A DNA stretch of 64,000 bases from assembly GCA_017461365.1 (NCBI GenBank), contig JAFTYG010000056.1, positions 7,089-71,088 on the forward strand, given 5' to 3'. Made by a program: the position numbers. The DNA is from Clostridia bacterium. Lineage in GTDB: Bacteria > Bacillota > Clostridia > Oscillospirales > CAG-272. This document shows positions 24,001-27,000 of this stretch, piece by piece; position 1 is the stretch's first letter, and each line of letters starts with the position of its first letter.

Positions 24001-27000
24001 GTTACATTACCGATTGATACACCCACGACAAACTCAAATTTGTACCTAACCCATACACAAAAAGGATCACGGAAATTCGTGATCCTTTTGACTTCATATA
24101 TTAACCGAATATATTTCCGCTGTCGCCGCCAACACTACCAGAGTTCCAAGTGGAATCTACAACGTCTTTTCTGTTAAATGCCAAAGCTCTGATATAGTAG
24201 GTCTCAGATGTGCAGGTTTTAGTGCTGTTAGTCGATATAGTTACGGTACCCGTAAGCTCTACCTTCACCCAGTTTCCGCTCTTGCTTACTCCAACCTTGT
24301 TCAAGGTATAGCCTTCGGACAGATTTGTTGACTTAACGCCGCTTGCAAGAAGTACGTTTGTAGCGTCGAGCTCAAAATTTTCATATTTACCCGGAGAGAA
24401 GGGCGTTTGGTAAAAGAGAACCGCATTGTTTGTAGTTTCACTCAGTGTAATAGCTGTAGCCTCGCACTCATTAAACTCAAAATCCAAGCCGTTTACAGTA
24501 ACATAAGTGGACATTACATATCCCGTCTGACCATTGTATGTAACCTTGTCCCACGTATAGTTTGTTTCTAAGCGTGATATAGCTGCACCTACGGGGATAC
24601 TTGTAAGCATAGTGCTGTTGCTTGAAGACTCTGAACGAAGCGCAAGAGATACGCCTGCATAAACGGTATCATTCTTTTCTACCCAACCCGAAGGATTGGT
24701 GTTATTATTATTATTATTATTCTCGTTGTCATTTCCGTCGGGAGTCTGAGTATTGTTTGTGTCTGTGCTTGTATCAGTGGAATCGTTGTTTGTGTCGTTG
24801 CTCGTGTCAACGTAATCGTTGTCGTTATCCCAATCATCGTCGTCAACGGGCTTTCTGTCGTCGTTCTGACAGGAAACGAGTGTTATGGATGCTGCCGCAA
24901 GAAGCGCGAGTAAAATTGCTAATGTCTTTTTCATTTTTTCTTTCAATTCTCCTTTAATTTTAAATTCCGTTTATAGACCATTCGGCAGGGTGGTGCTTTG
25001 CCGAATACAATTCAATATAAAATACACAATACATTATACCAAAAAAAAGATATGCTGTCAAGCAAAATAATAAAGATTTTTCAGGAATATTTTTTGGATG
25101 CTTTTTGAGTGCCGTCGGACGCTTTTTTACGTCTGCTTTTGATCTCTCATAAGCTCTCTTATTGCCGAGACAGCCGTCCGTATCGCCCTGTCGGTGTCAT
25201 GACATTCGCTCTCGTCACCGTCAAGTCCCGCGTGGTATCTTTCCTGATTCCATACGCACATAAACACCGCGCCTGCCCTCACTCCGAGGCTCGACGCTAC
25301 CGTGAAAAGGGTAGACGCCTCCATCTCGCTTGCAAGCACTCCGAGCCTTTTCCAAGCTTCCCACTTTTCAAGAAGTGTCTTTTCGGTCGCCATACGCGCA
25401 GGCGAGTGCTGACCGTAAAAGGAGTCCTTGCTCTGAACTACTCCCGTGTGATAGGGCAATCCTTGCTCCTTTGCCGCAGATATGAGCGCAAAGAGAACGT
25501 CCGAGGAGGGCACAGCAGGGAATTCTATCGGCGCGTATTCTCTCGACGTGCCGTCCTGACGCACAGCTCCCGAGGCTATTACAATATCTCCCGAGCGTAC
25601 GGGCAGAGCTATGCCTCCGCAAGTGCCTATCCGTATAAAGGTGTGAGCGCCGCAGGCGCAGAGCTCTTCAACCGCGATCGCCGTAGACGGACCTCCGATG
25701 CCCGTAGAGCAAACGGTCACAAGCTCGCCGTCGAGCCTACCGCACCATATGTTGTATTCACGGTTCGAGCCGAGATGATACGCGCCGTCAAGATACGCGG
25801 CGATCTTCTCGCACCGCCCGGGATCGCCGGGGAGCAGACAGTATCCGCCTATCTCACCCCGTTTTGCGGCTATGTGGTATTGCAATTCGTCTGTTTTGAG
25901 CATAGCGTAGGCTCCTTTCGCTTTTCGAATATTTGGTTGACAAACATAAAAACTTGTGATATAATCGCCATAGCGAAAACCCGTAGAGGGGACGCTTGGA
26001 TTTATTCAAGCTCTGAGCCTACGTTACAGGCTCCACCATGTATGGTGGCGGTTGCTTCCTTATTACCGAGGAAGCCAATATTTCTTTTGCCTTCCTCGTA
26101 AAGAGGGAGGTGGTATCGTGAGTTACTTAACTTGGCAGGATCTTGTATCTATCGCCACGCTTGTAGTTGCTATCATATCTTGTTTTAGAAACAAAAAGAA
26201 ATAACCGCCCAGCTACCAACTTAGCGGTTATTTCTTTATAACGTATTAAGTGGAAGTACCGTCATCGGTGCCTCTCTGCTATTATTATAAACCGCTTTTC
26301 TTAATTTGTCAATAGAGATTTTATAAAATTTGTCTCCAAGCTCGTCTTGGAGCTTTTTATTTATTAACCGAACATCAAGGAATACGAAAGCTCCTTCTTA
26401 TCCCCCGCTACGAGCCTGAACAGGTCTCTTTTCTTTGAGAAATCGTCGATCTCTCCGTCATAGGATGGCAGACCGCACCACGGCTCTATGCAAACGTAGG
26501 GCGCGTCTGTCCTCGGCGCATGCCAGAGCCCGAGATAGGGGAAATCCTCTGCGGTAAATCTGACATATCTGTCGCTTTTTTCAGACCTGAGACATACCTC
26601 GGTGCAGTTTCTCGCAAGGAATATAGCGTCGTTGTCAAAAAGACTGTGGCGAAGAGAGAGACGCTTGCCACCCTCAAGATAGAACGCCTCGTTCTTTCCC
26701 GTGAGAAAGCAGGTGTCCGAAAGTCCTATCTTGTCGGGACTGCAAGGCTCGGAAAATTCAATGTAGCAGTCCTCAAAGCCGCCCTCACTAAGAGGCACGT
26801 TGAAGCCGGGATGCAGACCGACGGCAAAGGGAAGTACCTTTTCGTCGGTGTTCTTTACCGTAATGCCGCCGAAAAGTGTCTTGTCCGACAGACAGTATTC
26901 GACCGATAGCTCGAATTTAAAGGGATACACCGCAAGCGTTTCCGCATTTTCGGTAAGAGTAAACCTTATTCTGTTCTCACACGTCTTTTCGGAAGAGAAG

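Follow-up and report, generated by a model that had tools for sequence, protein, structure and literature searches.

New type I toxin-antitoxin (TA) families are found regularly and, to our knowledge, type I TA loci are almost never annotated and the known families come mostly from cultured model bacteria. Here we describe a self-contained cassette of about 445 bp that is probably an intact member of a family of type I TA-like cassettes, inserted between an aldose 1-epimerase gene and the uridine phosphorylase gene udp (25918-26362, with approximate ends) in a 64-kb stretch of contig JAFTYG010000056.1 of a Clostridia bacterium (assembly GCA_017461365.1, positions 7,089 to 71,088), which is called the window throughout. 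Some hallmarks of type I loci are tandem repeats, hydrophobic peptides, location in prophages, pairing between Shine-Dalgarno (SD) and anti-SD sequences, terminator stem-loops, and interactions between the 5' and 3' ends of the mRNA (PMC8594479, PMC6563280), and such long-distance interactions are listed as a key determinant of type I toxin mRNAs (PMC8594479).

The par system (Fst/RNA II) of Enterococcus faecalis pAD1 has convergent promoters with a bidirectional intrinsic terminator in common, and its SD is buried by an intramolecular 5' stem-loop (PMC7472228). Its complementary terminator loops can start the RNA-RNA contact, its toxin is a transmembrane peptide of about 30 residues with a charged C-terminus, and copies are found on mobile elements as well as on chromosomes (PMC7472228). 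The signature of Fst/Ldr peptides is a Trp between the transmembrane helix and the charged C-terminus, together with a P/D/S/T-XXX-G(C) motif (PMC7472228). The type I toxins of Bacillus subtilis prophages have 28-60 residues and one transmembrane helix, many of them being encoded in prophages or prophage-like elements, and degradation of the RNA duplex is expected (PMC6563280, PMC8594479). The toxins of Clostridioides difficile type I systems are reported to have widespread homologues among the phages of this species (PMC6563280).

When set beside these systems, the cassette represents a new family of a known kind: its nearest architecture is that of par/Fst, its nearest overlap geometry is that of the B. 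subtilis prophage systems, and its fold-back recalls hok and aapA. Convergent promoters, a shared bidirectional terminator, an SD-burying 5' stem-loop and a small transmembrane peptide are common to par/Fst and the cassette. The predicted promoter of the toxin mRNA, TTGACA-17-TGaTATAAT at 25937-25965 on the plus strand, matches the consensus at 12/12 positions and carries the upstream TG, with transcription predicted to start near 25972, and the predicted promoter of the antisense (antitoxin) RNA, TTGACA-17-TATAAT at 26312-26284 on the minus strand, also scores 12/12; both had been reported in a preliminary description of this locus, and both stand. A promoter scan of 25800-26450 found exactly these two sites, both 12/12 with 17-nt spacers. 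Perfect promoters of the TTGACA-17-TATAAT form number nine in the whole window versus 0 in shuffles; they are in frequent use in this organism, and two of the nine face each other at the cassette, 376 bp apart.

Relatives of the peptide were found by HMMER, using a 30-residue translation from the window as query against 1.84 billion representative proteins. The search gave 17 related peptides (E 8e-6 to 9e-4, 57-72% identical), three of which are gene calls of 29-30 residues, the others being longer calls that match in their C-terminal 28 residues. The spurious upstream translations of these longer calls read ...F(A/C)(F/L)(L/P)RKEGGG(I)M and the read-throughs ...ITASRPNKAVIF, which, at the nucleotide level, are the conserved SD hairpin and terminator written in protein letters. 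A profile search returned 42 clusters, none of them with a name or a Pfam domain. An unbiased scan of GTDB species genomes used a pattern made of peptide codons only (T-W-x-D-xxx-I-A-x-L-x6-C-F), a choice made against circularity, and returned 31 loci, namely 25 family members and 6 chance matches in unrelated phyla. The 25 family loci lie in 20 Clostridia-class gut metagenome-assembled genomes (MAGs) from goat, roe deer, cattle and other sources, and the scan of a viral collection added one member and one chance match. In the true loci the antisense promoter scores 11-12/12 and, in complete ones, a sense promoter of 10-12/12 is found about 150 nt upstream; the seven chance matches, which act as built-in negative controls, are without either promoter.

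The scan loci and the loci fetched via protein look-ups gave 34 distinct modules of 321-389 bp. The sense promoter is present at the matching distance (10-12/12) in 33/33 complete homologous modules, the single locus without it, L033, being cut at a contig end, and the antisense promoter is present at a fixed distance (11-12/12) in 34/34, compared with scores of 6-9/12 at arbitrary places in the seven chance matches. An alignment of 33 modules conserves, from 5' to 3', the sense promoter, the GCUUCC...GGAAG hairpin, the SD hairpin, the start codon and ORF (open reading frame), the terminator AAAAAGAUAACCGCC...GCGGUUAUCUUUU, the segment GGAAGCAACCGUCAUCGGUG, and the antisense promoter, followed by an A+T-rich stretch. 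The architecture of the locus is far beyond chance, because it recurs as a whole in 34 distinct modules. The co-conservation of ORF, leader features and antisense promoter in related genomes bears out, for the sequence-level parts, the proposal of a type I TA-like module made in the preliminary description; only the sense promoter of L033 is cut off. At this level, the cassette belongs to a previously unannotated family in uncultured gut Clostridia, which is unusually well defined by comparative data.

Other collections contributed little to this picture. PHROGs gave only scattered matches (E 0.04-0.2) to different families of unknown function, and a word-indexed protein search with a 50-residue extended ORF found nothing. 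A tblastn search with the family consensus returned nothing at E <= 1 among 50,697 phage records (INPHARED) and 72,556 plasmids (PLSDB), which differs from the wide phage distribution of the C. difficile toxins, although the comparison is indirect, as the query was the family consensus.

The ORF starts with GTG at 26118 and runs for 28 codons to 26204 on the plus strand, with GGAGG 7 nt upstream, just as it had been described, and encodes (M)SYLTWQDLVSIATLVVAIISCFRNKKK, i.e. one hydrophobic helix and a basic tail. Mean hydropathy is 2.7 in the core of the peptide, LVSIATLVVAIISCF, its tail reads RNKKK, and the shape of a small hydrophobic peptide with a charged end and one predicted transmembrane segment holds family-wide. 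The family pattern consists of an acidic/aromatic N-terminus (xYxTWxD), one hydrophobic helix, and a C-F-x-N-K-K-K/R tail, with T, W, D, A, L and F invariant and Y, I and C near-invariant in the family alignment. In 33 modules the start codons are ATG (27), GTG (5) and TTG (1), always 7-8 nt from GGAGG. The codon entropy at positions 1, 2 and 3 is 0.74, 0.20 and 1.11, and the ratio of non-synonymous to synonymous variation (pN/pS) is 0.31, with pN < pS in 491/496 pairs, values in which purifying selection is somewhat overstated because the search pattern fixed 8 residues. Loci that keep the RNA structure and lose the frame were not seen.

These observations bear directly on the idea that the locus makes a non-coding structured RNA, either a small RNA or a cis-regulator, in which the 28-codon ORF would be fortuitous. 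The leader is indeed highly structured, the predicted sense RNA (25972-26245, 274 nt) folding at -93.6 kcal/mol with z = -4.6, and an ORF-less copy elsewhere in the window, copy 2, retains the 5' RNA. However, frame, start and stop are kept in 34 modules, in which the length of the ORF changes by whole codons only (28-33 residues), the SD lies 7-8 nt before the start everywhere, and variation is highest at third codon positions, where it is 5 times that of second ones, a codon pattern that already contradicts a fortuitous ORF. There is no Rfam match either: a gathering-threshold scan of the whole window gave one tRNA only, and a search of 25850-26420 at E <= 10 gave terminator look-alikes only. 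A non-coding origin is hardly credible on these grounds, and judging from the conservation pattern it is close to certain that the ORF is coding and that it is accompanied by a conserved convergent promoter/terminator pair.

The two predicted transcripts share T1, a bidirectional terminator at 26195-26237 with a U-run on both strands and a 17-nt loop. The 5' arm of this hairpin contains the stop codon TAA (26202-26204), so the overlap of terminator and stop codon claimed for the locus is real, and the same arrangement was found in 33/34 modules, the stop of L016 having been mis-called by the script. The T1 stem is 99.4% paired in the family. Its U-run has 8-9 T in 11 nt on the antisense side and 5-7 T in 10 nt on the sense side, so that T1 would seem to stop the antisense RNA strongly and the mRNA less strongly. 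Read on the opposite strand, the toxin codons AAC AAA AAA AGA (Asn/Lys/Arg) before the stop give the antisense RNA its U-run, a coding economy in which the Lys codons of the toxin double as part of the antitoxin terminator.

The antisense RNA is predicted to have about 84-90 nt (26188-26277, minus strand) and to consist of a 5' hairpin (ACCG-loop-CGGU), an unpaired UACUUCC, the T1 hairpin and a U-run. Across the family its predicted length is 79-88 nt, with the same ACCG-loop-CGGU hairpin at the 5' end, an unpaired UGCUUCC and then the T1 hairpin, and this in silico antisense gene keeps its promoter and terminator in 34/34 modules. Its convergent orientation and its overlap with the 3' end of the toxin mRNA agree with what had been proposed, and its length had been underestimated at about 75 nt. 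Because both predicted RNAs end at one hairpin terminator that contains the toxin stop codon, they would show full complementarity along a stretch of about 45-50 nt, which takes in two large loops that complement each other. The T1 loops are large in the whole family (16-21 nt, often with CU(A/U)CCAA), which is compatible with a first loop-loop contact as in par (PMC7472228).

In spite of these similarities, the cassette differs from each of the described systems. Its antisense RNA overlaps the last codons and the stop codon of the toxin gene, whereas in Fst/RNA II it does not (PMC8594479), and it lacks direct repeats of the DRa/DRb type for 5' complementarity, its conserved repeat being inverted and reaching from the 5' untranslated region (UTR) to beyond the terminator. 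A 3'-side antisense RNA overlapping the ORF end is also seen in txpA/RatA, bsrG/SR4, bsrE/SR5 and bsrH/as-bsrH of B. subtilis (PMC6563280, PMC8594479), but in the cassette the overlap is confined to the terminator and 4-5 codons. The CD2517.1/RCd8 and phiCD630 loci of C. difficile resemble the cassette in their Clostridia host, convergent overlapping genes, hydrophobic N-terminal part, Lys-rich tail, and link to prophages, but those toxins have 34-59 residues and a long region complementary to the antitoxin (PMC6563280). In the case of the peptide, the likeness to Fst, TxpA and holin-like toxins that had been suggested holds for the shape, a transmembrane helix with a basic tail, and not for family membership. 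The window peptide and eight relatives gave no match to Pfam Fst_toxin at E <= 10, the invariant Trp (position 6) lies N-terminal to the helix, and S/T-XXX-C occurs in a minority only, unlike the Fst/Ldr signature; likewise, no Pfam-A or NCBIfam match at E <= 10 connects the peptide to TxpA/BsrG or Hol_Tox (PF16935).

Three more terminators in the window contain the T1 arm AAAAGAAATAACCGCCC, at 19843-19890 (+), 9440-9487 (-) and 7270-7316 (-). Of these, the terminator at 19843 aligns with T1 along 49 nt (score 61, shuffles reaching 30 at most), and its loop is similar to that of T1 in L002, a related locus. These sites were considered as further modules and rejected, since their homology extends at most over the terminator hairpin, and at 7316 over the 5' arm only; they may be copies of T1 that stand alone, or they may belong to a kind of terminator that has spread within this genome.

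The leader of the toxin mRNA contains two hairpins that are kept across the family. The first of them, GCUUCCU...AGGAAGC at 26054-26075 (+), pairs an anti-SD-like arm with an SD-like arm and shows compensatory changes in L041, a module on a viral contig. The second, GCCUUCCUC-GUAAA-GAGGGAGGU at 26089-26111 (+), has 9 bp, belongs to the minimum-energy fold and buries the SD; its stem is 98.7% paired in the family and the unpaired probability of GGAGG in 33 modules has a mean of 0.02 and a median of 0.007. All four leader hairpins named in the preliminary description are present in the minimum-energy structure. The 5' part of the leader (25974-26033, +), by contrast with these family-wide elements, is genome-specific and forms three hairpins, CCC-GUAGA-GGG, GCUUGGA...UUCAAGC and GAGCC...GGCUC, all in the minimum-energy fold and all common to copy 2, where hairpin 2 carries compensatory changes; most other family members have a short GGC-GAAA-GCC hairpin in their place. 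An exact 19-mer from hairpin 3 (GAGCCTACGTTACAGGCTC) had 0 matches in genome, viral and metagenome collections, and this hairpin is specific to the lineage.

An additional feature, absent from the preliminary description, is an inverted repeat that links 25-28 nt of the 5' UTR with a segment between T1 and the antisense -10. The 5' arm, IR-L (CACCAUGUAUGGUGGCGGUUGCUUCC, 26034-26059, +), pairs with the 3' arm, IR-R (26252-26279, +), and the minus-strand copy of IR-R is the first ~26 nt of the predicted antisense RNA. The duplex between cognate leader and IR-R has a mean energy of -48.4 kcal/mol, compared with -38.9 for non-cognate pairs, -39.2 for random re-pairings and -23.6 for shuffled IR-R, and 0/20000 permutations reached the cognate value. 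The helix is also predicted by RNAalifold on whole modules. Pairs with changes on both sides number 17, versus 6.7 +/- 1.7 in shuffles (0/500), and 15 of the 17 fall in the IR-L:IR-R helix; covarying cells number 59, versus 6-18 when the partner columns are slid, and two helix columns are about evenly A-U and G-C. Among the non-Watson-Crick cells of the helix, G-U (54) outnumbers A-C (20), which argues for pairing of the sense-strand RNA and not for DNA-level pairing or pairing of the opposite transcript. In folded read-through transcripts the helix has a median of 28 bp in the family; that of the window is the weakest, with -35 kcal/mol and about 10 bp expected. Such transcripts would be stopped by T2, an outer terminator at 26334-26360 that ends the epimerase transcript on the minus strand; a crude scan found a terminator at this position in 16/34 modules.

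A conserved, covarying 5' UTR-to-3' helix, seen here in covariation and cognate duplex energies, would be a likeness to hok/sok and aapA/isoA. Those systems are Gram-negative and their antisense RNA targets the 5' region, whereas in the cassette the 3' arm lies beyond an intrinsic terminator and the antisense RNA takes its first ~26 nt from the opposite strand of the same DNA; the fold-back transcript on which the likeness to hok/aapA depends is predicted and requires read-through of T1. A switch model, in which IR-L:IR-R pairing frees the SD via a GAGGAAG:CUUCCUC hairpin, was considered and is unsupported by equilibrium folding: the mean unpaired probability of the SD is 0.02 in the terminated and 0.10 in the read-through RNA, and the SD stays paired when the antisense-bound region is masked (11 modules computed).

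The cassette is found in diverse genomic contexts. In L002 (2595-3800) there are three head-to-tail full cassettes, each with its own sense-oriented outer terminator, and the array directly adjoins a large serine recombinase that interrupts a P-type ATPase gene. In L007 and L008 the module lies between a serine integrase and ImmA/repressor genes, i.e. in a prophage lysogeny region, in L041 the viral contig that carries it has 41 kb, in L005 the context looks chromosomal, and one MAG has four loci. The neighbouring genes differ at every locus and there is no conserved partner gene. In the window, the flanking genes are udp (25127-25903, -) and the epimerase gene (26364-27308, -). In the sister species L042, L043 and L044 the distance from the epimerase stop to the udp start is just 15-21 bp, with Udp identities of 89% and 82% and the same gene order SpoVAC-SpoVAD-epimerase-udp-SH3, and the module is therefore an insertion, placed by comparison of the junctions between the epimerase stop codon and the udp ribosome-binding site. 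Tandem arrays, multiple copies per genome, prophage sites, and presence or absence between sister species fit the biology of TA systems, and the link of the cassette to mobile elements is partial.

A rival idea is that the cassette is primarily a small mobile DNA element similar to a miniature inverted-repeat transposable element (MITE), whose inverted TTGACAA ends and inner 25-28-bp repeats would be sites for a recombinase acting in trans, with the promoters and the ORF as cargo or as incidental parts. Its status as an insertion when compared with sister species, the internally deleted copy 2 that retains both ends, the co-variation of the inverted repeats between loci, and the large serine recombinases that adjoin several copies are all in line with such an element. 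On the other hand, the TTGACAA motifs lie inside the insertion, whose ends are at about 25918 and 26362, and no target-site duplication was seen at the junctions in the comparison with sister species; the supposed ends have the exact spacing of -35/-10 promoters, and the -10 hexamers are conserved; the mismatches of the inverted repeat are biased to sense-strand G-U, as expected of RNA and not of DNA pairing; and most loci are without a nearby recombinase. A MITE-like nature is thus very improbable as an explanation of the whole, and it would be compatible with a TA function and not an alternative to it.

The cassette shows the class features of type I systems, namely a small hydrophobic peptide, an overlapping cis antisense gene (in silico), and a buried SD. 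The peptide is presumably toxic, because its SD is permanently buried, its antisense promoter is perfect, the cassette is autonomous and occurs in multiple copies, and a decayed copy is without the ORF; neutralisation would come about by RNA-RNA pairing. A different explanation is that a real, conserved small membrane protein is under antisense control and is not a toxin, being instead a prophage moron product (for superinfection exclusion, or a holin or channel modulator) or a regulatory subunit of a membrane complex, in which case the antisense RNA would merely tune its level. The coding signature and the conservation of the family are silent on toxicity, some copies lie in prophage lysogeny modules, where morons are common, the peptide has no homology to any proven toxin, and the invariance of T-W-x-D and C-F points to a specific interaction more than to general damage of the membrane. 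Nevertheless, a strong constitutive antisense promoter of 11-12/12 in 34/34 modules, combined with an SD that is permanently buried, is how a harmful product is typically silenced, tandem arrays and several copies per genome are typical of TA systems, the decayed copy lost the ORF first, and the cassette is autonomous, without a conserved partner gene and with neighbours that vary by locus. A harmless membrane protein is, for these reasons, unlikely.

If the cassette is a type I TA system, the most likely control, by analogy with txpA/RatA or bsrG/SR4 (PMC6563280), is that the two RNAs pair at the terminator they share and are then degraded. An abundant antisense RNA would bind the toxin mRNA at its 3' end, the first contact being a loop-loop kiss at this terminator as in par/Fst, and the pairing would lead to degradation of the duplex, the SD hairpin holding translation low meanwhile. 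When the antisense RNA is lost, the peptide would be made, insert in the membrane and harm the cell, which would stabilise prophages or other elements that carry the cassette. Some toxin transcripts may read through the weaker sense side of T1 and would then fold back via the 25-28-bp helix, forming a long-distance lock similar to that of hok or aapA, or an RNase III site; the antisense RNA, a perfect complement of the segment downstream of T1, could compete for that segment. As the complement of the fold-back 3' arm is the 5' end of the antitoxin, the 5' domain of the antitoxin is a near copy of a segment of the toxin 5' UTR. Gram-positive-style antisense control at a shared terminator and fold-back in the style of hok/aapA are known only separately, and the cassette may combine both. 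The full combination, in which 3'-overlap antisense control coexists with fold-back, the antitoxin mimics the 5' UTR and competes for its 3' partner in read-through transcripts, and the whole is an autonomous, horizontally moving cassette of ~445 bp with an insulating terminator, can be proposed only tentatively.

Several points weigh against the interpretation as a type I TA system. The hydrophobic stretch is short, 15 residues strictly and 18 from W6 to F23, purifying selection is overstated to the degree noted above, and Pfam, NCBIfam and PADLOC contain no match for the peptide or its relatives (Pfam-A and NCBIfam at E <= 10). Transcription of toxin and antisense genes from both strands is a prediction made from sequence only, and the long-range helix, with its 3' arm downstream of T1, would matter only if some of the mRNA reads through T1 to T2. 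The antisense 5' tail pairs with the SD/start region no better than shuffled tails do (best duplex -23.6 kcal/mol versus a shuffle mean of -23.0), so that a second contact as in par is not supported and control would rest on the 3' overlap alone. Recombinases are nearby in 4 of about 30 loci (L002, L003 and L007/L008), and a general link to serine recombinases was rejected.

The stereotyped architecture of the family gives a searchable definition, made of a peptide motif and RNA features, for Pfam, Rfam, T1TAdb and the annotation of MAGs, and the family fills an annotation gap in the uncultured gut Clostridia of ruminants and other hosts. Additionally, the covarying helix that spans a terminator poses a concrete question, namely how the toxin mRNA is locked.

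Copy 2, which the preliminary description did not include, was found by blastn of the cassette region against the window. It lies at 7635-7808 on the minus strand, between a leucine-rich repeat (LRR) surface-protein gene (8010-9308, -) and a 59-residue ORF (7453-7632, +). Its sense promoter matches at 12/12 positions around a 16-nt spacer, and of the leader the first ~85 nt are kept, hairpin 3 being identical and hairpin 2 having three compensatory changes. This leader is fused directly to sequence from the distal end of IR-R and the region of the antisense promoter (TCGGTGCCTCTCTGCT...TTTGTCAATAGA...TTTTATAAAATTT), located immediately inside that promoter in the main locus. About 215 bp, comprising the SD hairpin, the ORF and T1, are absent, and the antisense -10, as it stands in the sequence, is degraded to TATAAC. 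Copy 2 can be read as a deletion derivative that has lost the toxin.

The insertion of the cassette split an epimerase-udp pair that is tight in sister species, and the transcription of udp may have changed. No good minus-strand promoter was seen directly upstream of udp (25903-25972), and udp transcription may now rely on the antisense promoter of the cassette (26284-26312) reading across T1. The mechanical ORF list also contains a 330-residue ORF at 25109-26101 (+), which runs antisense through udp into the cassette leader and is almost certainly spurious, having no family match and overlapping a well-supported gene.

Some other observations concern the rest of the window. Near its end, a tRNA gene (62318-62390, +) adjoins a 495-residue ORF (62495-63982, -) that is weakly similar (E about 1e-7) to the large serine recombinases beside the cassettes in L002 and L007; the two, 36 kb away from the cassette, may mark the border of an integrated element. 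At 23874-23896 and 23974-23996 there is an inverted repeat with perfect 23-nt arms, AGCCTTCTCCCGTGGAGAAGGTG and its complement, and 77 nt between them; each arm is itself a hairpin, and the repeat accounts for mirror-image ORFs on the two strands in the mechanical ORF list.

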